A stretch of 64,000 nucleotides of DNA from the NCBI RefSeq assembly GCF_018350175.1, contig NC_058368.1, positions 89,592,001 to 89,656,000 of the forward strand, given 5' to 3'. This document shows, one piece after another, positions 18,171 through 48,300 of this stretch. Numbering within the stretch: the first letter of the stretch is position 1; every line of letters starts with the position of its first letter. This stretch comes from Felis catus (lineage: Eukaryota). The notes under the pieces were generated by a model. The model searched no databases. It saw only the letters and a list, made by a program, of their open reading frames with translations, and was not told the origin of the DNA. Made by a program: the position numbers and the translations under genes.

Positions 18171-18504
18171 CCACCCACTTCTGGTCAATGGCTACTTCAA
18201 ATGGAGAAAAGATGGAGGTGATAAATCCTATATCTGGTTGGTGATACAGGTCCTCTCACACATCACAAAAGGAAACATCTTTCAGTCAGTTTTGGAAAAC
18301 AATTTGGCAATGTTCCATAGCATTAGAATATATCTACCCTTAGACACCATAATCTCATTCCTGGATATCTATTCTGAGGAAATAATCACTAAGTAAAGAT
18401 CACATTCAAAGATGTTATTAAGCAAAAAAATTTCCTGTACTCTTTAATAATGAGGAGGTAGGTTGCAGTTTATCTCCACCATGGACAAGGGCCTCAGAGT
18501 CACT

Positions 18505-21857: not shown

Positions 21858-21860
<3 letters not shown>

Positions 21861-21899
<39 letters not shown>
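21861..21899 (+). repeat. (CAA)13 microsatellite
   Basis: Direct reading. Confidence 0.95.
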
Positions 21900-22016
21900 A
21901 ATCCTGCTGTCTCTGGCCAAAGGACAAGAATAGAGAAGCCCAACAGAGACTGTATGGAGAGATTCAACCCTCACTCTACAACTGAGTCATCAGCAAACAA
22001 CCCCAACTGCCCATGA

Positions 22017-22018
22017 CA

Positions 22019-22058
<40 letters not shown>
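22017..22058 (+). repeat. CAG-CAA-(CAG)11-CAA microsatellite
   Basis: Direct reading. Confidence 0.95.
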
Positions 22059-22524
22059 AGCCCTTTGTCTCTTTGCCCTTTAACAGTGGCATAAGAAGAC
22101 CTCAAAGAAATGGCTACTGATACCCTATCTTCAACAGGAGGTAGCTCAGGGATACCAGGCAACCCAGTGAACACTCACTGTCCCCACAGAGAGTACTAGC
22201 AGAATTAAGAAGTCCCAGGAGCCCCAGAAGAATAAAGTAGAACAGAATAACATTGCAAATCTCTGGAATTAAACTGTCAAGCTCACAAAAATAGGTCAGA
22301 ACATACAGGCTAACCTTAAACAGCAAAACTACCTTCTAAATAGAATATTGAAATAGGATAAAAAGTCTCTTAACAACATAACCAAAACATTGAGGATATA
22401 ACAGAAAAATCATTCCTCATACCAAGAACCAGTGAAATCACAATTTGAATAAAAGAGTTTGCTGACACCAAAACCAGGATGAGTAAGATGATGGAATGTT
22501 AAATATTTTAAAGCAGTCATCATA

Positions 22525-23341
22525 TGGCCAACAGACACATGAAAAGATGTTCAGCATCGCTCCTTATCAGGGAAATACAAATCAAAACCACACTCAGGTA
22601 TCACCTCACGCCAGTCAGAGTGGCCAAAATGAACAAATCAGGAGACTATAGATGCTGGAGAGGATGTGGAGAAACGGGAACCCTCTTGCACTGTTGGTGG
22701 GAATGCAAACTGGTGCAGACACTCTGGAAAACAGTGTGGAGGTTCCTCAGAAAATTAAAAATAGACCTACCCTATGACCCAGCAATAGCACTGCTAGGAA
22801 TTTATCCAAGGGATACAGGAGTGCTGATGCATAGGGGCACTTGTACCCCAATGTTCATAGCAGCACTCTCAACAATAGCCAAATTATGGAAAGAGCCTAA
22901 ATGTCCACCAACTGATGAATGGATAAAGAAATTGTGGTTTATATACACAATGGAATACTACGTGGCAATGAGAAAAAATGAAATATGGCCTTTTGTAGCA
23001 ACGTGGATGGAACTGGAGAGTGTGATGCTAAATGAAATAAGCCATACAGAGAAAGACAGATACCATATGGTTTCACTCTTATGTGGATCCTGAGAAACTT
23101 AACAGGAACCCATGGGGGAGGGGAAGGAAAAAAAAAAAGAGGTTAGAGTGGGAGAGAGCCAAAGCATAAGAGACTGTTAAAAACTGAGAACAAACTGAGG
23201 GTTGATGGGGGGTGGGAGGGAGGAGAGGGTGGGTGATGGGTATTGAAGAGGGCACCTTTTGGGATGAGCACTGGGTGTTGTATGGAAACCAATTTGACAA
23301 TAAATTTCATATATAAAAAATTAAAAAAACAAGAAAAAAAA
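22525..23341 (+). mobile_element. Young 5'-truncated felid L1 (ORF2 C-terminus and 3' UTR)
   Basis: Uninterrupted 189-codon ORF2 C-terminal frame with the CWRGC...HCWWEC knuckle. Perfect TSD TAAAGCAGTCATCATA at 22509-22524 and 23342-23357. Confidence 0.95.
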
Positions 23342-26300: not shown

Positions 26301-28734
26301 ATAGGTGTTAACTCTACTTTAAATGTCTGGTGGAATGCCTCTGGGAAGCCATCTGGCCCAGGACTCTTGTTTGTTGGCAGATTTTTTATTACTGATTCAA
26401 TTTATTTGCTGGTTATAGGTCTGTTCAAATTTTCTGTTTCTTCCTGTTTCAGTTTTGATAGTTTGTGAGTGTCTAGGAATTTGTACATTTCTTCCAGATT
26501 GCCCAATTTGTTAGCATATAATATTTCATAGTATTCTCTTATAATTGTTTGTATTTCTGTGGTATTGGTTGTGATCTGTCTTTTTTTACTCATTATTTTA
26601 TCTATTTGTGTCCTTTTTATTTTCTTTTTTATATATCTGGCTAAGGGTTTATTAATTTTATCCTTTCAAAGAACTAGCTCTTAGTTTCATTGATATGTTC
26701 TACTCGAGGTTTTTTGTTTGTTTCTATATCATTTATTTCTGCTCTAATCTTCATTATTTCCCCTCTTCTGCTGGCTTTAGGCTTTATTTGCTTTTCCTTT
26801 TCTAGCTCCTTTAGGTGTAAGATTAGGTTGTATATTTGGGACCTTTCTTGCTTCTTGAGATAGGCCTGAATTGCAATGTACTTTCCTCTTAGGACTGTCT
26901 TTGCTTCATCCCAAAGGGTTTGGGCTGTCGTGTTTTCATTTTCATTTGCTTCCATGTATTTATTTATTTCTTCTTTAATTTTCTGGTTAACCCATTCATT
27001 CTTTAGTAGGATGTTCTTTAACCTCCATGTATTTGAGGGCTTTCCAAATTTTTTCTCGTAGTTAACTTCAAGTTTCATAGTGTTGTGGCCTGAAAATATG
27101 CATGGATGATCTTGATCTTTTTGTACTTCTTGAGTGCTGATTTGTGACCCAGTATATGATCTATTATGGAGAATGTTCCATTTGCATTTAAGAAGAATGT
27201 GTATTCTGCTGCTTTAGAATGAAATGTTCTGAATATATTTATTAAGTCCATCTGGTCAAGTGTGTTACACAAAGCCATTATTTCCTTGTTGACTTTCTGC
27301 TTGGATGATCTGTCCATTGCTGTGAATGAGGTGTTGAAGTTCCCTACTATTATTGTGTTACTGTCAATAAGTTTCTTTGTGTTTGTTATTAATGATTTAT
27401 ATATTAGAGTGCTTTCAAGTTAGAGGCATAATTATTTATAATTCTTAAATCTTCTTGATAAATAGACCCCTTAATTATGATATAATGCCCTTCTTCATCT
27501 CTTGATACAGTCTTTGTTTTAAAATCTAGTTTATCTGCTATAAATATGGCTACTCTGGCTTTCCTTTTAATGTCCATTAGCATGATAGATGGTTCTCCAT
27601 CCCCTCACTTTCCATCTGCAGGTGTCTTTAGGTCTAAAATGAGGCTCTTGTAGGCAGCATATAAATGGATCCTGTTTTTTTTTAACCCATTCTGATACCT
27701 TATGTCTTTTGATTGGAACATTTAGTCCATTTACACTCAGAGTGATTATTGAAAAATATGAACATTGTGTTGTCTGTAGAACTGGTGTTTCTGGTGATGT
27801 TCTCTGGTCCTTTCTAGTCATTGTTGCTTTTGGTCTTTTGTTTTGTTTTGTTTTTTCTCCACTGAAAGAGTCTCACTGTCTCACTTAAAATTTCTTGCAG
27901 GGCTGGATTACTGGTCATGAACTCCTTTAGTTTTGTTTGTCTGGGAAACTCTTTATCTCTCCTTCCATTCTGAATGACAGCCCTGGTGGATAAAGAATTC
28001 TTGGCTGCATGGTTTTCCCATTCGGCATGTTGAATATATCCTGCCATTCCCTTGTGGCCTGCCAAGTTTCTGTAGACAGATCTGCTGTGAACCAATCTCT
28101 CTTACCTTGTAGGTAAGGTTTTTTTCCCCTTGTTTTCATGATTATTTCCTTGTCTGTGTATTTGTAAATTTGACTATGATATTCCTTGGTAATCGTCAGC
28201 TTTTGTTGAACTTAAAGGGAGTTGTCTGTGCTTCTGGATTTTGATGTCTGTGTCCTCCCCAGATTAGGAAAGTTTTCAGCTATAATTTGCTCACATACAC
28301 CTCCTGCCCCTTTTTGTGTCTCTTCATTTTCTGGGACTCCTATGATATAATTGTTTTCCTCTTAATAAGTCACTGAGTTCTCTCTATGTCTTGTATTGTG
28401 GGTCTTTTGCCTTGTTTCCCACTCTTTTCAGCTTCATTATTTTCCATAATTTTATCTTCTGTGTCACTGATTTATTACTCTGCTTCATCCATCCTTGCCA
28501 TCATGGCATCCATTGGAGATTGAATCTCAATTATACCATTTTTAATTTCAGCATGACTAGATTTTAGTTCTTCTATCTCTGCAGAAAGGGATTCTCTAGC
28601 ATCTTCTATGCTTTCTTTCAAGCCCAGCTAGTATCCTTGTAATCATGGTTTTAAATTCTAGTTCAGACATCTTACTTATATCTGTATTGATTAAATCTCT
28701 GGCTGTGAGTTCTACTGCCTGTTCTTTCTTTCTT

Positions 28735-30167
28735 TTGTTACCATTTTATTTAATTTATTTTTTAAATTTACATCCAAGTTAGTTAGCATATAGTGCAACA
28801 ATGATTTCAGAAGTGTATTCCTTAATGCCCTTTACCCATTTAGCCCATCCCGCCTCCCACAACCCCTCCAGTAACCCTCAGTTTGTTCTCTTATGCTTTG
28901 TCCCCCTCCGTTTTTATATTATTTTTGCCTCCCTTCCATTATGTTTATCTGTTCTGCATCTTAAAGTCCTCATATGAGTGAAGTCTTATGATATTTGTCT
29001 TTCTCTGAATGACTAATTTCTCTTAGAATAATACCCTCCAGTTCCATCCATGTAGTTGTAAATGGCAAGATTTCATTCTTTTTGATTGCCGAGTAATACT
29101 CCATTGTATATATATACCACATCTTCTTTATCCATTCATCCATTGAGGGGCATTTGGGCTCTTTCCATACTTTGGCTATTGTGGATAGTGCTACTATAAA
29201 CATTGGGGTGCATGTGCCCCTTCAAAACAACATACCTGTATCCCTTGGATAAATACCTAGTAGTGTAATTGCTGGGCCATAGGGTAGTTCTATTTTTAAT
29301 TTTTTTGAGGAACCTCCATACTGTTTTCCAGAGTGGCTACACCAGCTAGCATTCCCACCAGCAGTGCAAAAGAGATCCTCTCTCTCTGCATCCTTGCCAA
29401 CATGTATTGTTGCCTGAGTTGTTAATGTTAGCCATTCTGACAGGTGTGAGGTAGCATCTCACTGTGGTTTTGATTTGTATTTCCCTGATGATGAGTGATG
29501 TTGAGCATTTGTTCATGTGTCGGTTGGCTATCTGGATGTCTTCTTTGGAGAAGTGTTTATTCATGTCTTTTGCCCATCTCTTCACTGGATTGTTTGTTTT
29601 TTGGGTGTTGAGTTTGATAAGTTCTTTATAGATTTTGGACACTAACCCTTTATCTGATATGTAGCTTGCAAATATCTTCTCCCATTCTGTTGGTTGCCTT
29701 TTCATTTTGCTGATTGTTTCCTTTGCTGTGCAGAAGCTTTTTATTTTGATGAGGTCCCAGTAGTTCATGTTTGCTTTTGTTTCCCTTGCTTCCAGAGACG
29801 TGTTGACTAAGAAGTTGCTATGGCCAAGGTCAAAGAGGTTTTTGCCTGCTTTGTCCTCGAGGATTTTGATGCTTCCTGTCTTACATTGAGGTCTTTCATC
29901 CATTTTGAGTTTATTTTTGTGTATGGTGTAAGAAAGTGGTCCAGGTTCATTTTTCTGCAGGTTGCTGTCCAGTTTTCCCAGGACGAGTTGCTGAAGAGAC
30001 TGTGTTTATTCCATTGGATATTCTTTCCTGCTTTGTCAAAGATGAGTTGGCCATACGTTTGTGGGTCCATTTCTGGGTTCTCTATTCTGTTCCATTGATC
30101 TTAATGTCTGTTCTTGTGCCAGTACCATACTGTCTTGATGATTACAGCTTTGTAACACAACTTGAAG
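28735..30167 (-). mobile_element. Nested 5'-truncated L1 inside ORF1 of the host L1
   Basis: ORF2 C-terminal peptides (29346-30070) and 3' UTR. Imperfect TSD TCTACT..CTGTTCTTT on both sides. Confidence 0.9.
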
Positions 30168-30953
30168 TCTACTGTTCTTTATTTTGGGATGAATTTCTCC
30201 ATCTTGTTATTTTGTCCAGAAAAGAAAAGAAGAAGAAAAAAAATAAAGAAATAAAAAGAAAAACAAGCAAACAAAAAACCACCTAGATCCTATATGTGTT
30301 TTGGTCTACTTGCTAAAGAAATCTAGATCCAAAAATAAAATAAAATATAGGAAAATAAAATAGGGGTGCCTGAGTGGTTCAGTAGGTTAAGCATCCTACT
30401 CTTGGTTTCAGCTCAGGTCATGATCTCACAGTTTTTTAGTTTGAGCCCCGCATCAAGCTCTATGCTGACAGTGCGGGGCCTGCTTGAGATTGTCACTCTC
30501 CCTCTCTTTCTCTGCCCCTCCCCTGTTCACACTCTGTCTTTGTCTCAAAATAAATAAACTTCAAAAATAAATAAACTTCAAAAAAATATATATATATGCA
30601 TATATATATGCATATATATAACAAAATATAATAAAAACAAGAAACAATAAAATTAAAAGAATATGTATACATATAAAATGTATAAATAAAAATAATAATT
30701 AAAAAAGGAATTTAAAAAACAAGAAAATAAATGAAAAATAATAAAATAAAGAATAACGGTAAAACTGAAGTTAGATCGTATTTTCCCTCGAGCTGAAACT
30801 TTGCAACACTACGATCTGTAGACTTGGTGCAAGGGAGTTGTTTGTGCTCATCTTTGCCGGAAAGTCCTGCATCACTGACTCTCAGGCTGACGTGTGTCAT
30901 GGAAACACTTCCAGGATGCAGGGGGTGGGGCTTGATGTAAGAGACTTCAGCCT

Positions 30954-30969
30954 CCACTAGATGGCGCTG
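30954..30969 (+). promoter_or_regulatory. CTCF-like motif inside an L1 5' region
   Basis: CCACTAGATGGCGCTG matches the CTCF core. Confidence 0.5.
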
Positions 30970-31934
30970 TGCTTCCCTCTGAAGCCTGATGTTGCTGGGA
31001 TTGGGGAGTAGATGGAAGATGGCATCACTTCACCCTTTAATCCCATGGGAGGGGAACTCACCTCTGTTCAGGTGGCCCTTACAGAAAAGCATCCTAGGCT
31101 TTTGTCAAATCCCTGTCCTTAACCTGTCTGTACCTGGCAGTTGGCACACCCAGCACCACAGTTCTCCTGTGTTTTATCTCTGGCTGGTGACTGTGATTCA
31201 AAACCCCAAATCTTAAAGGGCCAGGCCTGGAGCAGACCTGCTCTCTTCCTCTGCCCTTCACTGGCCTGTCCCAGAAAAGTAGTCACATGGCACGCTCACA
31301 GTGGCTGGAATATATTGTGGCACACAGTGAAAAGCTGTGATCAGGTTATTTGCAGTCTCTGTGTGCCTCTGTTCCAGAAAAGCAGTCACACAAGGCAAGC
31401 CAAGTGGCTGGAGTCTACTGCAGTGAACAGCAAAAAGCTGCAACCAGTATGTCTACCATCTGCAGGTGCTACCATAGCAACTCCCTGCTATTGAATGGCC
31501 ACTCAATGGCTCCCAACAGGACTATTGTCCTTGAAGAGACAAAACCAAAAACAAACAAACAAAAGCCCTCTTCCAAATATACACCGGGAAAGGAAGCAAT
31601 ATCTCTTAGTGTGACCCAGGGGATCCACACACTATGGGGTCTTGTGTGAATCCTACAAGTCATTCCTTCCCCACCACTCTCTCCCTCTCTTCCTGACCAC
31701 TCTCCATGAAAAAGTTTCCCTTCCTGCTGTGGTACTGAGACTTTCCTCTTCCCCAATTAATAGCTCTGAACCTCACATCTGCCATGTTCTCCCACTCCAA
31801 TTGTACAGATTATTTTCTTAATCCTTCGATTGATTTCCTAGTTGTTAAAAATAATTTGATGATGATCTAGCTGTGTTGGAAGGACGAGGCAAGCTCAGCA
31901 TAACTCCCACTATTCTGCCATTTTAACTTCTCCA

Positions 31935-32488
31935 AAACCTTAAGTGGAAATTATACAACTGAAATAAAATAACTAACGTTTAAAAACTTGCTAGATAGAC
32001 TCAATAGTAAGTGAAGATGACAGAGGACAGAATCAATGAAAACAAATGAGTAGAATTTACCCAATCTGAGTAAAGAGAACACAGTAGACCAAAAAAAGGG
32101 GGGAAGAGTGTGTGAAAGATCCTCGGGAACTTAAAAGACTAAAGAAAAAGGAGGTCTAGCATTCATAGAATTTATATTATCAGAGCCCCAGAAGAAGGAG
32201 AGGACAACGTGTGGAAATAAACATGTATTGGAAGAAATAATGGCTGAAAGTCCCAAATTTGGCAAAAGACATAATTCTACAGATTCAAGAAGTTGAACAA
32301 TTCCCAAAAAGGATAACAAGAAAAGAAAAATCCATGCCGAGACACAGCAAAACTAAACTTCTGAAAACTAACAAGGAAACAATTTTATTTGTTTTTTTAG
32401 TGTTTATTTATTTTGAGAGAGAGTGAGCATGAGCAGGGGAGGGGCAGAGAGAGGGAGAGGGAAGGAGGTATGGAGGGAGGCAGGGAGG

Positions 32489-32538
<50 letters not shown>

Positions 32539-34631
32539 CCTAAGCAGGCTCCATGCTCACAGTCCAACTTGGGGCTTGATGCAGGGCTTGATTTCACCAC
32601 TTCGAGATCATGACCTGAACTGAAATCTAGTCGGATGCTAAACTGGCTAAGCCCCCCAGGTGCCCCAAAAAGGGAAACAACTTTAAAACAACCAGAAAGA
32701 AGCAGGATATTGCATTGAAGAGAGCACCAATTTGAACGACAACAGATTTCTCATCTAAAACAATGGAGGCTAAAAAGAAAAGACACATCTTTCAGGCGTT
32801 GAAAGCAGAGAACTGTCAATTTTGAATCCCATGTCCTTCCTTCAAGAGTGAATAAGAAATAATGATATCCTAAAGCAAGGAAAACTAAGAGAATTTATTG
32901 CTAACAGACCTAGTCTTAAATACCGGCTACAGGAAGATCTCCAAATAGAAAGAAAATGATAAAACTGGAAGTAAATATAATACACAATCCTTCAGTTCAT
33001 GAGTTTCTTTAATCATATTTTATGGTTGAAGCAGAAGTTATAACACCATCTGATGTGGTACTTAAAGTATATAGTGGAAATAATTATATTTTTTAAAGTG
33101 GAAGGGTAAAGGTAGGTAAAGTTTCTACATTTCACTTGAAGTGATAAGACATCAACACCAGTAGGCTGTGATTACATATATGTATGATTATAACTAGAAC
33201 AACTACTATCAAAACTACACAAAAAGTAATATGCTGGAGAACACTATAATCAGTCAAAATGGAACTCTAAAAATGTTCAGCTAACTTACAGGATAGAAGG
33301 AAAAAGTAGCAGAAGAACGATAAATATAGGAAACAGACAACAAATAATAAAAGGACAGAACCATGCCCGAATATGCCAATAATTACTTTAAATGTCTATG
33401 GTCTGAATACACAAATTGAAAGACAGAGTTTGGCAGACCTAAACGTAGTTTGCCTGCAAAAACTCACCTCAAACATAATGACATATCTATGCTGGAAAGG
33501 AAAAGGACAAAGCATGCAAACATTATTTTTTTAATCAGAAAGGGATATATTAACATCAGATAAAGTAGACTTTGGTGCAAAGAAAGTAAGTAGGGATAAA
33601 TAGGGACATTACGTAACAACAAAAGGACCTATCCACCAAGAAGATACAGCAATTCTAAAGGTGTATGTACCAAACAATAAAGCTTCAAAATACATGAAGC
33701 ATGGGGCACCTGGGTGGCTCAGTCGGTTAAGCATCTGACTTAGGCTCAGGTTGAGTTCAAGCCCTGCATCAGACTCTGTGCTGACAGCTCAGAGCCTGGA
33801 GCCTACTTTGAATTCTGTGTCTCCCTCTCTCTCTGACCCTCCCCCACTCGCACTCTGTCACTCAAAATAAATAAACATTTAAAAATTTTTTTAAAAAAAA
33901 ACAAACTACATGAAGCAAAAAACTGAAAGAACCAAAAGAATAGACAAATTCACAAGTATAGTTGGGGGTTTCAGTCCTCATTTATCAATTGATAAAATTA
34001 AACAGAAAATCAGCAAAATAGAAGAATTCAGCAATGCTATAAAGAAAAAGAACTTGATGGACATTTGTAAAATACTCCAAAAATAGTAAAATACACATTC
34101 TTTTCTGACATCCATAGAACAATTATCAAGATAACACTTAAGGAGGACCATAAAATAAACCTTAACAAATTTAAAAGAGTAGAACTCATAGAGAAGGTTC
34201 TCTGACCATACTAGCATAAAGCTAGAAATAAATTACAGAAAGTGAACAAAAAAATCTTCAAATATTTGGAAATTAGATGTCATACTTCTAAATAATTCAT
34301 GAGTCAAAGAGAAAGTCCCACAGGAAAAAAAAATATATATATAATGTATTGAATGTAAATGAAAGCATAACTTATCAAAATTTGTAGGATGCAGCCAAAG
34401 CAGTGCTGAGAGAGGTACTTATAGCAACAAATGCTTACTTTAGAAAACAGAATTCACTAAGTACCTGGGTGGCTCAGTCAGTTGGGCGTTTGACTTTGGC
34501 TCAGGTCATAATCTCACCATTCATGGGTTTGAGCCCTGCATCGGGCTCTGTGTTGACAGCTCACAGCCTGGAGCCTGCTTTGGATTCTGTGTCTCCCTCT
34601 CTCTCTGACCCTCCCCTGCTCACACTCTGTC

Positions 34632-34674
<43 letters not shown>

Positions 34675-35115
34675 AACAAACATTAAAAAAAAAACAGAAC
34701 TCAACAGAACTCAATAATCTAAGTTCCTACCTCCAAAATTAGAAAAAAATAAAAATAAATACCAAGAAAGCAGAAGGAAAGAATTATTAAAGACAAAAGC
34801 AGCAGCCAATGAAATTGAAACAGGAAAATAGAGAAAATTAAGCAAAAACCCACTTTTCTGAAAAAAATAAAATCAACAAACTATAGAGAAGAGATGGTTA
34901 GTAGAGGGGAAGTGGGTGGGGAGATGGGTGAAATTGGTAAAGGGGATTAAGAGTATACACCTTGTTGAGCACTGGGTAGTATATAGAATTGTTGAATCGC
35001 TATACTGTACACCTGAAACAAATGTAACATTGTATGTTAACTACATTGGAATTAAAACTTAAAAACATTTAAAAACCCAACAAACAAACAAATAAGCAAG
35101 CAAAAAAAAACCCTA
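31935..35115 (+). mobile_element. Old L1M ORF1/ORF2 remnant with SINEs (32383-32666 -, 33703-33903 +, 34458-34694 +) and an L1 3' fragment (about 34885-35075)
   Basis: Degenerate L1 motifs such as AATTACTTTAAATGTCTATGGTCT and ATCAGATAAAGTAGACTT. SINE TSDs include TACATGAAGCA. Confidence 0.75.
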
Positions 35116-37334
35116 TAAATGAATTCAGAGATATATGACATGTTTATTATGTTGAGATTTTTGGTCCTTTCATGTGGTAGGTCTCTCCAAGAATTTAGAT
35201 CATCTTTTATTTCTTTCATTTGCATTTTTTATTTTTATCTCACAGATCCTGTGCATATCTTGTTTGATTTATACCTCAGTATTTTGTTTTCTCTGAAGAA
35301 ATTGTAAGTGTGTTATTGTGGCTTTGATTTTAGTTTCTACCTATTCACCATTAGTATATAGAAATGAAATTCATTTTTGTGTATTGATCTTGTATCCTGA
35401 GAGCAGGTCAAGCTCAATAATTTGCTTCAGGAGGATTTATTTTGTAGATTTTCCTGGGATTTTCTACACAGACCATCATGCCATTTGGAAATGGAGTTTT
35501 ATTTTTTTCCTTTTCAGTGAATATCTCTTATATCGCAAATATCTTCTCCCATTCCATAGGTTGTCTTTTAGTTTTGTTGTTTCCTTTGCTGTGCAGAAAC
35601 TTCTTTATTTTGATGTAATACCAATATTTTATTTTTGCTTTTATTTCCTTTGCTTCAAGAGATTTATCTAGAAAGATGTCACTGTGGCTGATGTCAGAGA
35701 AATTACTGCCTGTGCTCTCATCTGGGATCTTTATGATTTCCGGTCTCACATTTAAATTCTTAATCTATTCTGAGTTTATTTTTGTGTATGATGTAAAAAA
35801 AAAAAAAGTGGTCCAATTTCATTCTTTTGGATGTAGCTGTCCAGTTTTCCAAACACCTTTTGTTAAAGAGAATGTCTTTTTCCCATTGAATAGTCTTGTC
35901 TCCTTTGTTGAAGATTAATTGACCATATAATTACAGGTTTATTTCTGGGCTTAATATTCTGTTCCATTGATCTATGTTTCTATTTTTGTGCCAGTACCAT
36001 ACTGTTTTGATTACTGTAGCTTTGTAATATAACTTGAAGTGTAGAATTGTGATGCTTCCTGTTTTCTTTTTTCTTTTTCTTTTTTTTTCAAAGATTTGGT
36101 ATTTGGGGTCTTTTGTGGTTCCATACAAGTTTTAGGATTGTTTGTTCTAGTTCTGTGAAAAATGCCATTTGTATTTTGATAGGGGTTGCATTAAATGTGT
36201 AGATTGCTTTGGGTAGTATAGACATTTTAATAATATTGGTTCTTCCAATTCATGAGCATGGAATTACTTTCCATTTCTTTGTGTCATCTTCAATTTCAAT
36301 TTCACCCCTTTGGTTAAATTTATTCCTAAGTATCTTATTACTTTTAGTGCTACTGTAAATGGGATTGCTTTCTTAATTTCTCTTCTGCTGCTTCATTATT
36401 GGCATATAGAAATGCAGTGGATTTCTGTACATTAATTTTGTATCCTGTGACCTTGATTAATTCATTTATCAGTTCTAGTAGATTTTGGAGTTTTCTGTAT
36501 ATATAGTATCAGGTCATCTGCAAATAGTGAAAGTTTTACTTCATCTTTACCAATTCGGACACCTTTTATTCCTTTCTCTTGTCTGATTGCTGTGGTTAGG
36601 ACTTCTAGTACTATGCTGGATAACTGGTGAGAGTGGACAGCCCCATCTTGTTCCTGACCGTGGAGGAAAAGCTCTCAATTTTTCACCTTTGTCTATGGTG
36701 TTAGCTATGGGTTCTTCATAAAAGACCTTTATTATGTTGAGGTATGTTCCCTCTAAATATTTTGTTGAGGGTTTTGTCATGAGTGTATCTTACGCTTTTT
36801 CAAATGCTTTTTCTGCAGTTATGGAAGTGATTGTATGGTTTTTGTCCTTTCTCTTATTAATGTGATGTATTACATTGATTGATTTGAAAATATTAAAACA
36901 CACTAGCATCCCAGAAATAAATCCCACTTGATCATGGTGAATTTTTAAAAATATATTGTTGGGTTCAGTTTAATATAATTTTGAGGATTTTTACATTTAT
37001 GTTCATTAGAGATATTGGCCTGCGGTTCTCTTTTTGTGTGGTATCTTTATCTGGTTTTGGAATCAGGGTAATGTTGGCCTCATAGAATGAATTTGGAAGT
37101 GATCTTTCCTCTTCTATATTTTGGAAAAGATTACCTTGCTGGTAGTCTGTCTAATCAGATTTTCTATTTCTTCTTGACTCAGTTCTGGTAGTTTATTTCT
37201 TTCTACAAATTTATCTATTTCTTCTAGGTTGTCCAGTTTGTTGGCATATATTTTTTCATAAAATTTTCTTAAAATCCTTTGTATTTCTGTGGTGTTGGTT
37301 GTTATTTCTCCTCTTTAATTTCTGGGTTTTTTTG

Positions 37335-37372
<38 letters not shown>

Positions 37373-40188
37373 CCCTCCCTCTTTCCCTTTCTCTTTTGAT
37401 GAGTCTGGGTAGAAGCTATTAATTTTGTTGATCTTTTCAGAGAACAAGCTGTTGGTTTCATTGATTATTTATGCTCTAATCTTTATGATTTCCCTTTTGC
37501 TGGCTTTAGGCTTTGTTTGTTGTTCTTTTTATAGTTCATTAGGTGTAAGTTTAGATTTTTTATTTGACATTTGTCTTGCTTCTTTTTTCAACGTTTATTT
37601 ATTTTTGGGACAGAGAGAGACAGAGCATGAACGGGGGAGGGGCAGAGAGAGAGGGAGACACAGAATCGGAAACAGGCTCCAGGCTCCGAGCCATCAGCCC
37701 AGAGCCTGACGCGGGGCTCGAACTCACGGACCGCGAGATCGTGACCTGGCTGAAGTCGGACGCTTAACCGACTGCGCCACCCAGACGCCCCTTGTCTTGC
37801 TTCTTGAGGTAGGCCTGTATTGCTATTATTTTCCCTCTTAGAACCACTTTTGCTGTATCCCAAGGGTTTTGGACTACTATGTTTTCATTTTCATTTGTCT
37901 GCATGTATTTTTTGATTTCCTCTTTCATTTCTTCACTGAACTATTCATTGTTTAGTAGCATGTTATTTAAACTCCAAATATTTGTGCTCTTTCCAGAATT
38001 TTTTTTGTGGTTGATTTCTAATTTCATTGCATTGTGGTCAGAAAAGATGCATGGTATAATTTGATCTTTTTGAAATTGTTGAGACTTGTTTTGTGACTAA
38101 TATGTCATCTATTCTGGAGAATGTTTTGTGTGCTGGTGAAAAGAATGTGTATTGTGCTGTTATAGGATGAAATGCTCTGAATATATCTATTAAATCCGTA
38201 TAGTCTACTGTGTCATTCAAAGCCACCATTTCTTGGTTGATTTTCTGTCTGAATGATCTGTCCATCAATGTAAGTGGGGTATCCCCTACTATTATTGTGT
38301 TACTATCAGTTAGGTCCCTTATATTTGTCATTAACCATTTTATGTGTTTGGGTGCTGACATGTTGGGTGCATACATACTTACAATTGTTATGCCTTCTCT
38401 TTGGATTGTCTCCTTAATGATTATATAGTGTCCTTCTTTATCTCTTGTTACTGTCTTTGTTTTAAAGTCAATTTTTTCTCATATAAGTATTGCTACCCCT
38501 GCTTTTCTTTTCACATCCATTTGCATGATAAATGCTTCTGCATCCCTTCACTTTCAATATGCATGTGTTGTTAGGGTCTTACATGAGTCTCTTGTAGGCA
38601 ACATATAGATGGCTTTTATTATTATTTTTTATCCAGTCTATCACCCTATGTCTCTTAATTGGAGCATTTAGTACATTTACATTAAAAACAATTATAATAG
38701 GTATGTACTTATTGCCATCTTGTTATTTGTTTTGTGTTTCTTTTTGTGGCTTTTCTCTGTTCCTTTCTTTCCATGCTATCTTCTCTCACCATAAGTTTGC
38801 TGTCTTTAGTGACATACTTGGATGACTTTCTCTTCATTTTTTGCATATCTACTACTGGTTTTTGATTTGTGGTTACCATTAAGTGTGTATAACATCTTCT
38901 GCATACAGCAGTCTATCTTAAGTTGATGGTCACTTAAGTTTGAACCCATTCTTTACTCTTCTCCCCACGTTTTAGGTATATGGTGTCATAGTTTATGTCC
39001 TTTTATTTTGTGAGTCCCTTGACTGATATCCTTATTTTTACTCCTTTTATACTTCTTATTTTTCTAATTCTTACTTATGGCCTTTCCTTTATACTCAGAG
39101 TCCCCTTTAACATCCCTTTGCTGAGGGTTTTATCAAGAATGGGGGCGCCTGGGTGGCGCAGTCGGTTAAGCGTCCGACTTCAGCCAGGTCACGATCTCGC
39201 GGTCCGGGAGTTCGAGCCCCGCGTCAGGCTCTGGGCTGATGATGGCTCAGAGCCTGGAGCCTGTTTCCGATTCTGTGTCTCCCTCTCTCTCTGCCCCTCC
39301 CCCGTTCATGCTCTGTCTCTCTCTGTCCCCAAAATAAATAAACGTTGAAAAAAAAAAAAGAAAAATGAATTACTGGAACACGGCCAAGAACACTGCGCAT
39401 GATCTGTTCTTTAAAAAAAAAAAAAAAAAAAGAATGGATGCTGTACTTTGTCAAATGCTTTTTAACATATGTTTGCATCTATTGAGAGGATCATATGGTT
39501 CTTATCCTTTCATTTATTAATGTGGTATATCACATTGATTGATTTGTGAATATTGAACCAAACTTACAGCCAAGGAATAAGTCTCAGTTGATTGTGGTGA
39601 ATGATTCCTTTAATGTACTGTTGGATTTAATGTGTAGTAACTTGTTATGAGTTTTTGCATCCGTGTTCATCATGAATATTGGCCTATAATTCACTTTTTT
39701 AGTGGGGTCTTTGGTTTTGGAATCAAGGCAATTATGGCCTTGTAGAATGAGTTTGGAAGTTTTCCTGCCATTTCTATTTCTTAGAACAGTTTCAGAAGAA
39801 TACATTTTAACTCTTTTTTTTAATGTTTCATAGAAGTCCCCTAGGAAGCCATCCGGCCCTGTAATTTTTTTTGTTAGGAGATTTTTGATTTCTGATTCAA
39901 TTTCTTTGCTGGTTATCAGTCTGTTCAAATTTTGTTTCTTTCTGTTTCAGTTTTGGTGGTTTATATGTTCCTAGGAATTTATCCACTTCTTCCAGATTGC
40001 CCAATTTGATGACATAGAATTTTTCATAATATTCTCTTATAATTGTATTTCTGTTGGTTATGATTTCTCCTCTCTCACTAATGGTTTTATTATTTGGGTC
40101 CTTTCTCTTTTCTTTTTGATAAAGCTGGGGTTACCAATTTTATTAAGTCAAGGAACCAGCTCCTAGTCTCATTGACCTGTTCTACTTG

Positions 40189-40224
<36 letters not shown>

Positions 40225-40722
40225 CTTCTATATCATTTATTTTCAGCGAGGATCTGAGGGATTCTCAGATCACACCATCTGCTCCCAGCCCTCTCCTTGC
40301 CTTCTCCACTGGATCACTGTAGTGCCTGCCAGATTCAACACCAGCCAGGGTGTGGACCTCTAGAACTCCAGTCTTTGAGCTCTGCTAGTTGTAAAAACTC
40401 AAATAATCAGTCCCTCTCCTTTTCCCAGTAAATAGCCTTGGGGAAGTGTTTTCTTTGTGCAATCTCCTTTGTGCTGCTCTCTCTCCTCTGTGATCAGGGC
40501 TCCCTCTCCTCTGCAGCACCTGAGATCCTTTTGTTCCTCAAATCACATCTCTGCACCTCCTATCTTCCATGATGTAGTCTCTTCTCTCCCATTAATTGTG
40601 CAGTCTGCTCTCTCAGTCCTCAGATCTATTTGTTGGGTGTTCAGAATGATTTGATACTCATTTAGCTGTGTTCGAGGGACAAGGTAAGCATAGGGTCCTC
40701 CTACTACTCCATCATCTTAGCT
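35115..40722 (-). mobile_element. Composite antisense L1 block (ORF2 pieces, inter-ORF region, second ORF2 piece 39110-40235, 5' UTR 40240-40722) with young SINEs at 37581-37790 (-) and 39141-39431 (+)
   Basis: Minus-strand ORF2 peptides ([19 protein letters not shown]). L1 5'-terminal motif near 40700-40720. Confidence 0.85.
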
Positions 40723-40729
40723 CTTATCA

Positions 40730-43700
40730 TGAAGAAACTGATTTAAAAGGCATAAATTTACAAAATAATAATTATCAACCTGGGCTTATAACATATAAAC
40801 ATGCAATAGTCTCTCAGAGAGGAAAAATAATATATCTATGTTGGAGCAAAGTTTACGTTATTTACTGGAAATAAATTAGTATTAATCAATTAATTCATAT
40901 TAATCTGAGATATACTTCCTTTACATTTTATTTTGATATAATTTTATGTTTGCCAGCAAATTTGGGGGGAAGGTACAGGGAGTTTGTATGTACCCTTTAG
41001 TCAATTTCCCCCAATCACAATACCTGCATAACCATAGAACAACATAAAAACAAGAAAAATTACATTGGCACAATCTACAAAGTTTACTCATTTTTCATTA
41101 TTTTACATGTATTTATGTGTGTGTATTTCTATGCAATTCAATTACAATGTCTATGCAGATTTGTGTAACCACCACAATCAATATGCAGAACTAATCTATC
41201 ACCAAAAGCCTCCCTTGTGACATCTCTTCATAGCCATATATATCCACCCCATGCCTGACCCTTGTCAACTACTAATCTATTCTCTATTTCCATACTTTTA
41301 TTACTTCAAGAATGTTACATAAATGGAATCATATGCTATGTAACCTTTGGAGACTGACTTTATTCACTCATCATAATTCTCTTGAGGTCCATCTAAATAT
41401 CAATAGTTCATTTTTTTTAACATTTATTTATTTTTGAGAGACAGAGTGATCAGGGAGGGGTGGAGAGAAAGGGGAGACACTTAACTGACTGAGCCACCCA
41501 GGTGTTCCTCATTTATTTTTATTGCTGAATAGTATTTCATAGAATGATGTACATAGTTGTTTAACCATTCACCCATTGAAGGACTTTTGGGTAGTTTACA
41601 GTTTTGAGATATCAGGTATAAGGCTGCTATAAACATTGGTGAACATGTTTTCTCATGGAAATAAGTTTTCATTTCTTTGTGATAAATGGCCATGAGTACA
41701 ACTGCTCAGTCAAATGGTAAGTCCACTTTTGGTTTTCAAAGGAACTGCCAAACTGTTTTCTAGAGTGGCTGTATCATTTTGCATTTTGACTATCAATGTA
41801 TGAATGACCTAGCATCTTCACAGCACTTGATATCATCACTACTTATTTTAGCCATTCTCATAGGCATGTAGTAATAGCTCATTGTGGTTTTAATTTGCAT
41901 TTCCCTACCAGCTAATGGTGTTAAATATCTTTTCATGTATTTATTTGTCATCTGCATGTAAGGAGGTAGATATTTGAAAATTTAAGATGCATATTGTAAT
42001 TCTTAGAGAAACCACTATGAAAATAACTCAAAAATAGTAAAAATAAAGGGGGAAGAGAGGAGATTAAAATTATACACTAAAAAAAATCTATTTAGCACAA
42101 AGGTAGTAATGGAGCAACAGAGAAGCAAAAAACAAAAAACAAAAACCACACACGAGACAAATAGAAAATAAGTAGCAAAATGGAAAAAGTAAACCCAACC
42201 ATGGCAATAATTACAATAAATGTGAATAGATTAAAAAGTACAAATAAAAGAACAGAGACTGGATTTTAAATAGCAAGACCCATTATATGCTGGGCTATAA
42301 GAGATACAGCTTAGATTCAAGTATAAAAAACAAATTCAAATTAAAAGAATGGAAAAATATATTAATTGTAAACAGTATCCATAAGAGCTGGATTAACTGT
42401 AACAATATTTGGCAAAGCTAACTTTAAGTCTAAAAATATTACAAAAGAGAAAGAGGGACATTTCATAATGATAAAATGATCAATAATCAGGAAGCTATCA
42501 CAATTTAAAACTTATGTGCAGCTAACAACAGAGCTCCAACATCCACACAGCCAAAACTTACAGAATTGAAATGTAAAACAGACAATAAGACAATTATAGC
42601 TGAGTATTTTAAGCCTCCATTTTCAATAGCTGATAGAAAAATTAGACAGGAAATCAGCAAGAATAAAAAGACATTTTTTTAAATTTTTTTAACGTTTATT
42701 TATTGTTGAGAGATAGAGACAGAGCGTGAGGGGGAGAGGGACAGAGGGACACAGAATTGGAAGCAGGCTCCAGGCTCTGAGCTGTCAGCACAGAGACTCC
42801 AGGCTCTGAGCTGTCAGCACAGAGACGACACAGGGCTCGAACTCACAAACCATGAGCTGAAGTCAGACGCTCAACCGACTGAGCCAGCCAGGCTCCCCTA
42901 AAAGACTTATTTTTAAGTTTTGGACAACACTATCCAACAACTCAACTTGACATTGATTGAACACTCTGCCCCCAAACAGTAGAATATACCTTTTTTTAAA
43001 TACCTATGGAACATTTTCCAAAATAGAGCATATGGTTGGCCATAAAAAATGCCCCAACAAATTTAAAAGGATTGAAATCATTAAATGTAGGTTTAAGATC
43101 ACAGTGGAATAAAATTATAAATCAAAACCAGAAAGAAATGTGCAAAAATCCCCAAATATTTGGAAATTAAAGAACATACTTCTAAACTTAGGGTAAAAGA
43201 AAAAAATCATAATAGAAATTAGAACATATATTGAACTGAATGTCATCCAAACATAGTTTCAACATTATTCTAATGCCATTAAAAAGGCAAATTTATAGCT
43301 TAAAATGCCTAAATTACAGAAGAGAAAGGTCTCAAATCCCTAATCTTCCACCTTAAGAAACTTCTAAGAGAAGAGCAAACTAAACCCAAAGGAAGCAGAA
43401 AGAATTAAATAATAAAGATTAGAACCTAAATTAACAACAAAAATAGAAAACAGCAATAAAAACCACAAAAAATCAACACAATTAACAACGTTTAGACACA
43501 CTGACCAAAAACAAAGCAAGAATGAGAATGGGAGACATTTAGGTGGAGATACAGAGTAAAGTCACTAAGAAAATTAGAAATTGAAGACAGGGTATCATTT
43601 TCTACCTTACAAATATTAAGATTATAAGGAAATACAATGGACAATTTTATGCCAACACATTAGACAACTTACATGAAATGGGAAGATTCCCAGAAAGACA

Positions 43701-45330
43701 CCAGTTACTGAAACTGATTCAAGAAGAATTAGAAAACCTTAGTAGGCCTACAGCAAGATATTGAATTAGTAATTTTTAAATCTTCCCATAGAAACCCAGG
43801 CCCAGATGGCTCCATTGGTAAATCCTCCCAAACATTTCAAGAAGAAATTATACCAATCCTTCTACAAATTCTTCCAGATATATAGGAGGGAACCCTTTCA
43901 GCTCATTCTATGTGAGCAATATTACTCTGATATCAAAGCCAGACAAAAAGAGCACAAGAAAATAAAATTTCAGGCCAATATCTCTCATGGATACTCAAAC
44001 ACAGAATACTCAGACACAGAAGTACTCAACAAAATATAAGCAAACTGCACACCAAAAAGAGTGAGATTCACTGTTTGCAAATTAAAATCAACTAGATTGT
44101 TAGACTGTTAGGAGAACCCGAAATGGAATGCAGACTGTGAGAAATGAATCTAAGTGTGATACAAATGAATCACATAACCTCACTTAAAGGAAGCTGAAAG
44201 GAGCTGAACCAAGTGATTCTTAAAAGCAGTGCTGGGGCGCCTGGGTGGCTCAGTCGGTTAAGCGTCCGACTTCAGCCAGGTCACGATCTCGCGGTCCGTG
44301 AGTTCGAGCCCCGCGTCGGGCTCTGGGCTGATGGCTCGGAGCCTGGAGCCTGTTTCCGATTCTGTGTCTCCCTCTCTCTCTGCCCCTCCCCCGTTCATGC
44401 TCTGTCTCTCTCTGTCCCAAAAATAAATAAACGTTGGAAAAAAAAAAAAAAGCAGTGTTTTGGGGGCACCTGGATGGATCAGTTGGTTAAGAGTCTGACT
44501 TCAGCTCAGGTCGCGATCTCATGGTTGGTGGGTTTGAGCCCCGCATGCTGACAGGTATGAGCCTGGAACCTGCTTCAGAATCTGTGTCTGCCCCTTCCCT
44601 GCTCACACTCTGTCTCTCCCTCAAAAATAAATAATTAAAAAAATTAAAATTTTTTTATAAAACAGCACAATAATAATTGCTGTAGGCAAGATCCACTGAT
44701 GATGCAAAGTTCAAGGACAAACAATTTTTTGGTAGCATCAAAGTATGATTTCCCCCCTCAAATATTTATTACACAGGGAAAAATAACTATCCAATGGAGA
44801 ACTCTGGTATACATCACCTTAACTAGGTGATCAAGGCTAATATTTCCCATAGTAAGATATATGGATATTATGTACCCTTGAGGTGACGTGCTGAGAAGGG
44901 TACATCACCTAAGATTTTTCTTCAAAATCCTAACCTCAATGTTCTTATGAGAAAAAAGAGAAATCCAGATTGAGGGAAATTCTACAAAATACCTAACCAG
45001 TACTCTTCAGACATATCAAGGTTACACAAGATATTAAGACAGAGAGATGGTCAGTTGGGAGGAGACTCAGGAGACATGACAACTAAATCAAATTTGAGAT
45101 TCTGGACTGATACTGGGACAGAAAGAAAACTTTACTAGAAAAATTAGGAAAATCCAATTAAAGTCTGAAGTTTAGCTAATAGCATCATATCAGTGTCAGT
45201 TTCCTGGTTTCAACCATTGTTCTGTAAGATATTAACATTAGGAGAAGCTCAGTGAAGACTAGATGGGGATTCTCTGTAACTTTGTAACTGTCCTGTAAGT
45301 CTACAGTTGCATCCAATTTAAAAATTTTAA
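40730..45330. mobile_element. Old L1MC-like fragments in both orientations with SINEs (41411-41508 -, 42673-42898 -, 44233-44451 +, 44462-44650 +)
   Basis: Degenerate ORF2 (CCAGGCCCAGATGG, GAAATGGGAAGATTCC) and L1MC-like 3' UTR motifs. SINE TSD AAAAGCAGTG around 44233-44451. Confidence 0.75.
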
Positions 45331-45639
45331 AAAAGACTAAGTTGTCACAGCCATTTCATAACATACAGTAGGCATGATCAAGCCCAGAGTGATGTCAGGT
45401 GAGCCTGTGAGACACAAAAGAGGGAAAAGGCTGGTGCATGGGTTGCCACCTCATGGTCTCAAATACAAAAATCAGAAGTTAGTGTCTAGAGGCATAAAGT
45501 GGTGCTGCTTTCCCATCAGCTGAGCCACAGAAAACCTGACACAGTTAAGACCAGCTACTTGTACGAGTCAATTTTTCCTCCATTATGTTCAAAGAGAAAA
45601 GACATGGAACATTTGGCATAACAAAAAATCACACATGTA

Positions 45640-46040
45640 TTCAATATATATTATTATATGATACATATTGTATATTTTGTATATATTACACATATTATAT
45701 ACATTTTGTATGTACAAGAATTATTATATATATCACCTATATATACATATATTACATATGAATATAATGTATGCATATATTTTATATTAATTGTATGTTC
45801 TATTATTATGTATAATAATTATATATTATACATTATACACATGTCGTATGTTATATATACATATTATACATATGCATTACATATATATTATGTACATTAC
45901 AGATAGTAAATTATGTAATATATATAATACATCTAACAATACACATAATACATATTATATACATACATATTATATATGACTATATAAAACATATATAACA
46001 TATAAATATATACGACTATATATGTGTGTGACATATATAA
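45640..46040. repeat. AT-rich low-complexity tract (degenerate TA repeat)
   Basis: Direct reading. Confidence 0.9.
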
Positions 46041-46049
46041 CTTTGTTCA

Positions 46050-46055
46050 TTTATT
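46050..46055 (-). terminator. Candidate polyadenylation signal (AATAAA) for the retrogene
   Basis: TTTATT on the plus strand, about 600 nt downstream of the stop codon, within an L2-like 3'-end remnant. Confidence 0.4.
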
Positions 46056-46479
46056 GAATGTTTATGTGGTACCAAGTGTTCATATGTAGAAAGAGAAAGA
46101 CTGAAGGCTGTCTTGCCTGCTCCTGCCTGGAGAAAAACTGGTCCAAATCTTGTTCTTCGGTTGCAGGGATCACTGGGTGGGCCGGCCTAACAAGCTCCAG
46201 CCACCCAATTTCTAGGGACACATCAGGCAGAAAGACAATGGGAATGAAACATTGTCTCTATGGAGACAGCTAACCTACTTGATGGGGGTAGTTGGCCCAC
46301 AGGCACAGTGCCCTGGGCATAGCAGAACTTTGATGGTTTCCTACAATGCTCCTCCAAAGAACCAGTGAGGCCCTGCACAAAGTACTGGGGAATAAACCCT
46401 GGTGGACCAGGGAAAGGAGGACCCCTTTCTTATAGCCAAGCCAAGTAAGGCAAAGGTTTAGAGAGAACCAAGAAAAACA

Positions 46480-46660
46480 GCCCAAGGAGGTGCCCCTCCA
46501 TCCAACTATGGGAAGGCCACTGGGCCTGGGGAGTTCTGCATCTGCCAGAAGTCTTCTGCTGTGAATTAGTGCTGGGAGCTGGAGGAGGGAGTGCCTGCCA
46601 CAGGCGGGTATGGACAAGCAGGAAAGCTGAGGGGCGCTACAGTTGGAGATGGCCTCAGTC
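46480..46660 (-). pseudogene. Decayed 3' remnant of the POM121 retrocopy, now 3' UTR
   Basis: Shifted frames downstream of the stop give [16 protein letters not shown] and QMQNSPG. These resemble POM121 KSDAASNS, LAPSTNP and KMQ.P in the same order. Confidence 0.6.
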
Positions 46661-47881
46661 TTACCCTTCCCAGGCCTTGTTGATCCACTGGATTGCAGCT
46701 CTCTTCTCTAAGTCAAGGTCTTCAGCAGTGACTCGATAACCCACCTGGGGTGGTGGGAGCAGGATCAGTGAGTCATGTCGCCTAGAGGACAACAGCAGAG
46801 GAATCTTGCGCTTCTGGGGCCTGGAGCTGTCAGGCAGAGGTGAGCGATCCCTCAAACTCTGCTTCTGCCCAGAAGGTGCATCTGCAACATTTTCATGCTT
46901 GATCTTCCTTTGTGGTTCTACTGAGGCTGAAGAGCTAGAATGATAGCTTTCCTCACTGGCTTTCTTTGCGGCCACTTGGGGCTGGTATGAGGCTGGGCCT
47001 CGGATCCCAGCTGTGCCTGGGAAGCTCCTCGGCAGCGGTGGGAACCCTCGAGTGGAGCTGTAAGAACTGGTGATGGCATTGCGTTTGCTGCAGGAGCTCA
47101 AAAAGCAGGTGTGGGATTTCCTAATCAGGCTGTCTTCTAAGCTGGTAGAACAGAAGTCTCTCTTCAGAGGCCCCGGCCTGGGCACAAAGGAAGAGAGGAC
47201 TCCGTTGACCATCAGGCGCCTAAATGCTGACTGCATGCTCCCACTGCACTCGGCATCCCCTCTCATATCATCCTGCCTCTTGGGGACTGGGTGCCCTTCT
47301 CCAGGCTTTGCCAGCTCTTCCCTGCTCTCAACCAGGGAGGTCAGGTCTTTCTCTTCTTTGGCTTTCGCTTGACCATTCTCTTCGAGGGCCCTCATCAAGG
47401 TCTCCCTTCCACAAGGATTTGGGAGGTGACTAGACAGCGAAGACCACATACAGAGGACTGTCTCCTTCAGAGCCAAACGCAGCGTCAGCTTGCCCTTAGC
47501 AGATGCCATCTTCAGGATCACTGAAGTGCAGAACATCTTGGACCTGCAGGCAGACAGCACAGGCTTTGGATGGCGGGTGTGGGGCACTGAGGAAAAGACC
47601 CCCAGAAATAAACACCGGGCCTGCTGGATTGGATATTGCCGCAGATGGACTATGGCAAACCGCTGACGGTACCGACGACGACGGGGTGAAGCCACAAGAT
47701 TCTCGCATGACGGCCTGCGAGTTAGGTCCAGGGTCGGGGCCGCCGAGTGAACCCGGCAAGTCGGAGGAACACTGCGGGCTGGGTGCGCGGGCCCGAGGCT
47801 CTCAAGCGTCTCGGGCGGGTCCCCGCCTAGCAGAGAAGGGGACAGCGGCCGAGGGCGGGGCCGGCTCAGGTAACTGCCCAT
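46661..47881 (-). CDS. Intronless POM121-like (nuclear pore membrane protein 121 family) retrogene, 406 aa, lacking the TM anchor and FG-repeat region
   Basis: Uninterrupted ORF. The first in-frame ATG is at 47881 (MGSYLS...), with an in-frame TAA upstream at 47939-47941; the track ORF starts at a GTG at 47890. It carries colinear POM121-family motifs: [97 protein letters not shown]. Regions that are multi-exon in parental POM121 are contiguous here. Confidence 0.85.
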
Positions 47882-48300
47882 GAGGAGCACTTCTGCAAGG
47901 TCGGGTCCTTCAAATGAAGTCAGTGGCTCAGGTTTCCGTTAGCTGCCAAAGGGGCCAGGCAAAGCGCACACTGTTGGGTGTGCCGCCTATGACGCGTCCT
48001 TGGAACGTGTGAACAAAGAAAGGGCCGCGCGAGTACTGCACGAGGGATGGGCACGCGCACCCAGGTCGCTTCCCAACCCCTGCTTCTCATCGAAGGCACG
48101 AAATAGACCAGCTCATTGCGGGCACAGCCGCCCTTCATCAGCCAGGCCCCAGTTCCTTTGGGGGTGGGGAAGGTGCAACACCATGGTTCCCAGAACCCAG
48201 GAACGGCTCCAGGCTCAGGAGTGCTCCCTCCAATCCGGAGATTCAGAGTCAATACCGGGGTCTACCTGTGCTTACTCTAGCCCCCCATACCCAAAGGTCA
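47600..48300 (-). promoter_or_regulatory. CpG-rich island over the 5' end of the POM121-like retrogene
   Basis: High CpG density relative to the flanks. TGACG (CRE half-site) at 47990-47994 and CCGTTA (MYB-type) at 47936-47941. Confidence 0.55.
47882..48130 (-). pseudogene. Decayed 5' remnant of the POM121 retrocopy (TM/juxtamembrane coding part), now 5' UTR or promoter
   Basis: One frame reads LVYFVP...RTRHRR...APLAANGNL and the main frame reads [17 protein letters not shown]. These resemble POM121 LLYLVP...KARHRR...STANGNLLEPRTLLEGPDPAELLLMGSYLG (recalled). A frameshift near 47930 separates the two frames. Confidence 0.65.

Follow-up and report, generated by a model that had tools for sequence, protein, structure and literature searches.

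In the cat genome we identified an old, unnamed member of the known POM121 retrogene family with a distinctive remodelling. It encodes a protein of 406 amino acids without the transmembrane (TM) helix and the FG region of its parent, and it appears to be kept by purifying selection, which is supported by the retention of the open reading frame (ORF) and by the conservation of separate blocks within it. An earlier sequence-only reading had likewise preferred such selection to neutral decay. We are highly confident that the locus is a functional gene; with modest confidence, its product is best read as an adaptor on the nuclear envelope outside the pores, where a rebuilt hydrophobic stretch and a myristoyl group, as predicted, would take the place of the TM helix. 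The features of the gene are listed in Table 1, with positions in the window, i.e., the whole stretch of 64,000 nucleotides that was analysed.

Table 1. Features of the POM121-derived retrogene in the window (a slash in the splice donors stands for a vertical bar; aa, amino acids).
Feature	Positions	Strand	Basis or remarks
5' remnant of the retrocopy, decayed (TM-coding exon 1 of the parent)	47882..48266	minus	DNA alignment to parent mRNA
POM121-family ORF, 406 aa	46661..47881	minus	corresponds to rat POM121 129-528 and human POM121C 124-530; without FG dipeptide, without TM-strength segment
N-terminal MGSYLSR, MGxxxS-type motif, predicted N-myristoylation	47861..47881	minus	internal in parent, with Gly6
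Basic cluster new to the clade, aa 65-76, SPRRRR type; candidate NLS or patch for membrane binding	47654..47689	minus	sequence alignment
Rebuilt segment aa 115-150, proline-poor, moderately hydrophobic	47432..47539	minus	conserved in clade
Former bipartite importin-alpha NLS, disrupted	47234..47389	minus	insertion of ~17 aa, poor conservation
Conserved block aa 217-240, predicted beta-hairpin	47162..47233	minus	alignment and AlphaFold2
Conserved block aa 261-280	47042..47101	minus	motif in 45/46 clade rows and 19/19 parents
C-terminal block aa 352-406: KRK cluster, PPPQ.GY motif, amphipathic helix 386-404	46664..46828	minus	conserved
Alternative donor CAG/GTGGGT, RefSeq isoform X2	46737..46745	minus	X2 ends in exon-2 translation
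New splice donor GG/GTAAG, overlapping TAA; exon end 46665	46657..46667	minus	contig break, junction, parent alignment
3' remnant, decayed (from exon 10 of the parent)	46500..46660	minus	now intron start
Intron, 25,839 nt, GT...AG, mostly LINE-1 and SINE sequence	20826..46664	minus	junction; L1-type ORFs
Recruited second exon: TGA 20824-20822, then 3' UTR	20286..20825	minus	3' end approximate

The sequence-only reading had described a 406-codon ORF with POM121-family motifs encoding a TM-less, FG-less protein, and this ORF was recovered at 47881-46661 on the minus strand. Its product matches the Pfam family POM121 (PF15229, E 3e-88, residues 185-403), and its best 19-residue hydropathy is 1.07 (0.81-1.83 in 46 aligned rows of the retrogene clade), compared with 2.16-2.72 in 19 rows of parental POM121. 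The multi-exon parent lies on another contig of the cat genome (C41; the window is on C1), where 13 exons with GT-AG junctions were mapped. The window DNA is colinear with the spliced parental mRNA over the first ten exon junctions of the parent (nine mapped to a base, one inside an alignment gap), lacks the parental introns, and is 62-67% identical from the TM-coding exon through exon 10. Because of this low identity, the gaps of the alignment, including 24 "frameshifts" reported inside the open ORF, are unreliable, and the alignment was used only for colinearity and for an insertion at the stop codon. Parental homology extends past the ORF on both sides, upstream to the TM-coding exon and downstream for ~160 nt beyond the stop, in agreement with the earlier proposal that the original retrocopy exceeded the present ORF on either side. 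The 5' remnant is out of frame with the ORF (its outer limit past ~48170 is uncertain); the POM121-like peptides noticed there before (LVYFVP, RTRHRR, ANGNL) are in another frame and a stop precedes the ATG, and those noticed downstream (KTEAISN, PAPSTN, QMQNSPG) are spread across three frames. The earlier expression "trimmed at both ends" needs correction in that the 3' trimming is brought about by a new splice donor together with a 1-nt insertion. The retrogene was single-copy in a search of the cat genome, and is flanked by two TRIM genes, a V1R and an OR gene on one side and by a VEGFR-family gene, presumably FLT4, on the other.

A spliced transcript was detected in sequencing run X16, which was taken as RNA by guess. 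One contig of depth 721 spans 46665-47869, the flanking contigs have depths of 14.6 (across the 3' remnant, 46500..46660) and 5.4, and base 46665 is joined to base 20825 over a GT-AG intron of 25.8 kb. Exon-capture DNA as the source of this depth was rejected because of the GT-AG junction. At the second exon, the X16 contig (20286 to 20826) has a depth of 112 and carries a 29-nt loose end that equals the end of the ORF save for two letters. The same exon was located by a pattern derived from the tails of orthologues, with one match in the window (20827) where 0.02 were expected, and a strong polypyrimidine tract precedes it. Its other frames correspond to DDGAK-type tails (rodent and lemur models) and MxEL(R/Q)P tails (camel and tamandua models), both being readings of a single sequence in different frames. 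Recruitment of this exon probably dates to early placental history. The earlier description of the locus as intronless therefore applies to the coding part, which lacks the parental introns, but not to the gene, which has a new intron of 25,839 nt and a second exon. Because of the 1-nt insertion relative to the parent at the donor and stop, spliced (GAA GG/A TGA) and unspliced RNA both end in E-G-stop. The 3' flank of the retrocopy decayed because it had turned into intron.

The RefSeq isoform X2 of the cat (P0240, 394 aa) uses the donor at 46745 and reads the same second exon in another frame, dropping the C-terminal helix; its junction was absent from the sequencing runs examined. The X16 contig ends at 47869, 12 nt short of the ATG, at a place where filtering may mask further records. 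CpG-rich windows occur at 47501-48250, and the copied exon 1, which resembles a CpG island, likely serves as promoter and 5' UTR. No ATG is present between 48090 and 47881, so that Met1 is the first ATG below 48090, in a weak -3 context. Runs X15 and X17 showed flat low cover without the junction and are probably DNA, X20 showed no cover, and three single-cell runs gave 0 reads in the ~1% of each run examined. For the cattle orthologue, an NP_ record and a cDNA-derived protein exist. X16 differs from the window at 46671 and 46694; the change at 46671 gives Leu at residue 404, and since other cats also have Leu404, the Trp404 of the window may be a variant.

Orthologues are widespread among placental mammals. 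A protein search yielded 93 matches among 7991 candidates scored; the best 60 of these 93 are 44-98% identical and mostly full length (~400 aa), and derive from carnivorans, ungulates, whales, bats, moles, pangolins, colugo, lemurs, rodents, Afrotheria, and Xenarthra. Mouse, rat, and other muroid rodents were gained from a second search. Each of the four placental superorders (Laurasiatheria, Euarchontoglires, Afrotheria, and Xenarthra) thus has open copies with the same start and nearly the same end, and the gene is placental-wide, not a novelty of the cat; random stops throughout the core, named earlier as evidence that would speak against function, were not seen among the database proteins, and start and end are the same in dozens of lineages. 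Met-Gly stands at the cat start position in 70 of 88 clade proteins, and another residue in four (pig, two rodents, and one unnamed); the remaining 14 without the start motif comprise 12 fragments or downstream starts and two altered Peromyscus models. The cat stop position is the end of 53 of the 88 proteins. Losses are undercounted, because protein databases show only intact copies. A scan of metagenomes for orthologue DNA gave 179 pattern matches but no relative. In the muroid orthologues (P0067, P0078, P0215-P0232), which are mislabelled as MARCKS-like or collagen-like, the linker carries a long Ala/Gly-rich repeat insert; vole models shift frame inside this repeat, and some muroid copies are frame-broken.

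We reconstructed an IQ-TREE phylogeny from 42 of the 96 rows (LG+G4 without a mixture model), in which 18 retrogene rows from the four superorders formed one clade (100/99 support) that branched much like the species tree and was separate from POM121, POM121L2, POM121L1-like copies, and an NPAP1L-like ORF of the cat; POM121L12, NPAP1, and UPF0607 were left out. FastTree recovered the same grouping with all 96 rows (46 of them retrogene; clade support 0.68). The cattle member, LOC100125913, is located at 0 Mb on BTA7 near FLT4 and CNOT6, contains an intron, and is termed uncharacterised (PMC4253998, PMC5437562); the position beside FLT4 parallels that of the cat copy beside its VEGFR-family neighbour. 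We infer that a longer retrocopy gave rise to the gene before placentals radiated. Among the results of the protein searches and 10 further unnamed matches examined, no named protein of a monkey or ape belonged to the clade, and the matches from apes and tamarin lack the diagnostic segment 115-150, suggesting that the retrogene was likely lost in anthropoids.

Homology, the absence of parental introns, and the absence of a TM segment identify the gene as POM121-derived. With POM121 it shares PF15229, colinearity over exons 1-10, the hairpin, and the motifs of the conserved block and of the C-terminal helix, but it differs by the missing TM helix and FG tail, the destroyed bipartite NLS, the rebuilt segment 115-150, the replacement of parental introns by one new intron, and an identity of only ~40%. 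NPAP1L, NPAP1, and UPF0607 are, like the retrogene, POM121-derived, TM-less, and of placental origin. However, NPAP1L lies between TLE1 and TLE4, measures at least ~900 aa, and does not occur in rodents, and NPAP1 and UPF0607 are primate-only (PMC3942032); the retrogene lies by the gene that we take for FLT4, has 406 aa, and has rodent members. The cat copy that we named NPAP1L-like (contig C31) groups on a long branch with the retrogene clade and the POM121L1-like copies (100/98), and its ORF also begins at MG in the matching position. POM121L2 is a TM-less retrogene starting at the same internal Met, but it has ~1030-1050 aa, retains the proline-rich segment, forms its own clade (100/100), and is ~30% identical. 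Other POM121-family copies in the cat (L051, L054, L056, L058, L059) include the POM121L2-like ORF on contig C13, the NPAP1L-like one, and broken copies on C2 and C22; both intact copies start at MG at the position of the parent's internal Met.

The nearest group in the tree is formed by POM121L1P-like copies, in which the bipartite NLS is likewise missing and the C-terminal block retained; the two clades are separate (each 100/99) and joined at 93/62. In contrast to the retrogene, which is one unit, these copies are often repeated or multi-copy and lack the rebuilt segment. The human POM121L1P-like ORFs are without conservation support in the available text of PMC12679747. Repeated or multi-copy POM121L1-like ORFs occur in apes, tamarin, dolphin, ruminants, mustelids, bats, and elephant (P0069, P0075, P0080, P0169, P0182, P0186, P0285, P0286), and this group may therefore represent another old family of placental mammals instead of primate debris. 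sPom121 is TM-less as well, and its start Met is retained in the retrogene as Met116; however, it is produced as an isoform from the POM121 locus and retains both the NLS domain and the FG tail (PMC4888837, available text), whereas the retrogene has neither and is a separate, far older gene on a different contig from the POM121 locus.

In neutral simulations with assumed rates (0.05 indels per substitution, 0.1-0.2 substitutions per site), the ORF stayed open in 0 of 4000 cases, and 8-16 breaks were expected per lineage; with substitutions only, it stayed open in 3.2% (0.1) and 0.18% (0.2). Cat-dog identity is 1.00 for residues 1-10, 0.86 for 115-150, 0.96 for 217-240, 1.00 for 261-280, and 0.78 for 352-406. 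In the linkers it is 0.63-0.64, near the 0.67 simulated at a neutral distance of 0.2, which we take to be the cat-dog distance. Conserved blocks exceeded linkers in every species pair compared, and some motif columns are invariant across the clade alignment. The clade evolves fast, with a mean identity of 0.54 (parent POM121, 0.83; POM121L2, 0.68). The near-neutral linkers and some broken rodent models could be taken to indicate that the locus is a processed pseudogene which is transcribed and is still open by chance or because its decay is recent, but the common start and end in dozens of lineages, the recruited exon that the lineages share, the invariant columns, and the number of breaks expected under neutrality, together with flanks of the same age that are broken, make this very improbable, and we regard the pseudogene reading as largely refuted.

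The protein is predicted to be mostly disordered (AlphaFold2 with 49 sequences, mean pLDDT 44), except for a hairpin at 220-234 and a helix at 386-404, which falls in blocks of pLDDT 83-92 and has a hydrophobic moment of 0.65 across 394-404. Searches of Rfam and, with the clade profile, of the PDB gave no match, and the best match in the ESM Atlas (0.85, MACIR) is under the useful level. Translation would start at an internal Met of the parent. The consensus for N-myristoylation is a Met-Gly start with Ser at position 6 (MGxxxS), and the N-terminus of the retrogene conforms to it, which makes lipidation a prediction and the word "soluble", used in the sequence-only reading, doubtful. Position 6 is Ser in 55 of the 59 clade proteins with the motif and Gly in 78 of 81 proteins of the parent set; among the alignment rows, Ser6 is found in 39/46 of the clade versus 0/19 parents (Gly6 in 19/19), and Gly2 in 44/46. 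POM121L2 has 11 Ser and 12 Gly at this position. However, MGSYL is also kept inside the parent, down to amphibians, and its conservation need therefore not mean myristoylation. The SPRRRR cluster is new to the clade (28/45 rows; 0/19 parents, 0/11 POM121L2).

Segment 115-150 is conserved within the clade, yet it is the part most unlike the parent. The cat sequence is 0.81-0.92 identical to that of dog, horse, buffalo, fruit bat, and aardvark and 0.39-0.67 to that of rodents, sifaka, and armadillo, but only 0.28 to the parent. At unchanged parental length, prolines number 2.2 versus 7.9 in the parent, and hydrophobicity is 1.04 versus 0.25; Leu138 is present in 45/46 rows and Trp146 in 38/46. 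AlphaFold2 gave no confident fold for this segment. A new TM helix at 131-150 is not claimed, because only muroids and a few others attain a hydropathy of 1.5-1.8. Parental residues 292-321 match the crystallised NLS of PDB 4YI0; this bipartite NLS is found in 0/46 clade rows versus 19/19 parents, and the region is only 0.34-0.47 identical within the clade. Of the NLSs earlier ascribed to the central region, the KRK cluster is kept (43/46 rows), but the main bipartite signal is gone.

On this basis, we propose that the product is a mostly disordered, motif-bearing adaptor on the nuclear envelope, outside the pores, where the predicted N-myristoyl group and the rebuilt hydrophobic stretch would tether it in place of the lost TM helix. 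The kept motifs would bind inner-membrane proteins or scaffold nucleoporins, predicted from the mapped fragments of the parent to be LBR, ELYS, Nup153, Nup155, and Nup160. Without a strong NLS the protein would be less subject to control by importin/Ran, and would therefore tune the place or the number of pores assembled in expressing cells. An off-pore envelope adaptor is favoured because the product is nearly the 137-494/137-513 fragment of the parent: human POM121 137-494, which is TM-less and FG-less, reaches the nuclear envelope but not the pores, 137-513 binds LBR, ELYS, and Nup153 without working NLSs (PMC3069009), and 215-557 binds Nup155 and Nup160 (PMC3003318). The envelope-binding region of the parent (137-265), which contains the rebuilt segment, is only 0.28-0.41 identical, however, and since it is the most remodelled part, parental partners may have been lost; loss of Met1 in several lineages is a further weak point of the tether. 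More tentatively, the protein might be a lipid-anchored, import-independent mini-POM121 that regulates pore assembly in most placentals, and that monkeys and apes lost, using sPom121 instead. In an ancestral placental retrocopy, the internal MGSYL would then have become an N-myristoylated start and the proline-rich linker a membrane-binding segment.

Alternatively, the product could be a soluble, nucleoplasmic factor like sPom121 that uses KRK and SPRRRR to enter the nucleus and has Nup98 or the Nup107-160 complex as its partner away from the membrane, with translation perhaps beginning at Met116. This residue corresponds in the alignment to rat Met241, i.e., residue 1 of sPom121, is present in 39/46 rows, and has a better -3 context than Met1. 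sPom121 1-204, which lies within the coverage of the ORF, suffices for co-localisation with Nup98, and anthropoids, in which our protein searches found no orthologue, have sPom121 transcripts (PMC4888837). We nevertheless consider this rather unlikely: the same 1-204 region is termed the NLS domain of sPom121 in the available text of that study, and its bipartite NLS is destroyed in the retrogene; residues 1-10 and 53-92, upstream of Met116, are conserved; and Met116 is replaced in 7/46 rows. An exit from nuclear pore biology appears less probable still. The loss of the main NLS, the strong remodelling of 115-150, the fast evolution, the lineage losses, and the limitation of simian sPom121 to testis (PMC4888837) might suggest a rapidly changing protein of the cytoplasm or ER, tethered by a lipid and perhaps specific to germ cells, in which a few POM121 motifs are put to new use with other partners or which sequesters nucleoporins outside the nucleus, but the best-conserved blocks are those common to POM121 (0.56-0.76 identical to the parent), and the basic NLS-type cluster KRK is still kept.

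The earlier label "uncharacterised" holds in that we found no study of the retrogene in the literature covered (few subscription papers; the supplements of Carelli et al. 2016, PMC4772013, lie outside it), but RefSeq already models an unnamed "POM121-like" gene, and databases carry misleading names in rodents. The cattle orthologue appeared only as a GWAS neighbour in the available text of PMC4253998 and PMC5437562. The retrogene is not described in the main text or Table S2 of Neumann et al. 2014 (PMC3942032), the table containing only UPF0607, NPAP1, NPAP1L, POM121L2, and POM121C, nor in the available text of Franks et al. 2016 (PMC4888837), and the supplements of a paper on dog retrogenes contain no POM121.

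The set of nuclear pore components is regarded as almost fixed, yet this paralogue, which dates back to the placental radiation, has remained without a name. The probable reason is that humans seem to be without it and that the mouse copy is swollen by repeats and mislabelled "collagen alpha-1(I) chain-like". Cell biologists have worked with a POM121 fragment lacking the TM helix and the FG region, and the retrogene is its natural counterpart; the blocks conserved in the retrogene indicate which few motifs matter in the disordered centre of POM121. If the myristoyl prediction is true, a lipid anchor would have substituted for a transmembrane anchor after retroposition.

Elsewhere in the window, a GC-rich block (58-60%) with one CpG-rich window extends over 3000-5000; the ORF at 2587-3303 had no match in Pfam. 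About 2 kb beyond the second exon, a degenerate telomere-like tract lies at 18500-18640 (minus), with seven CCCTAA/TTAGGG hexamers in one 500-base bin (two in the next highest bin). At ~17420-17470 (minus), the octamer ATTTGCAT and a CCAAT box form a promoter-like site within a GC-rich, non-repeat stretch at 14000-18200.
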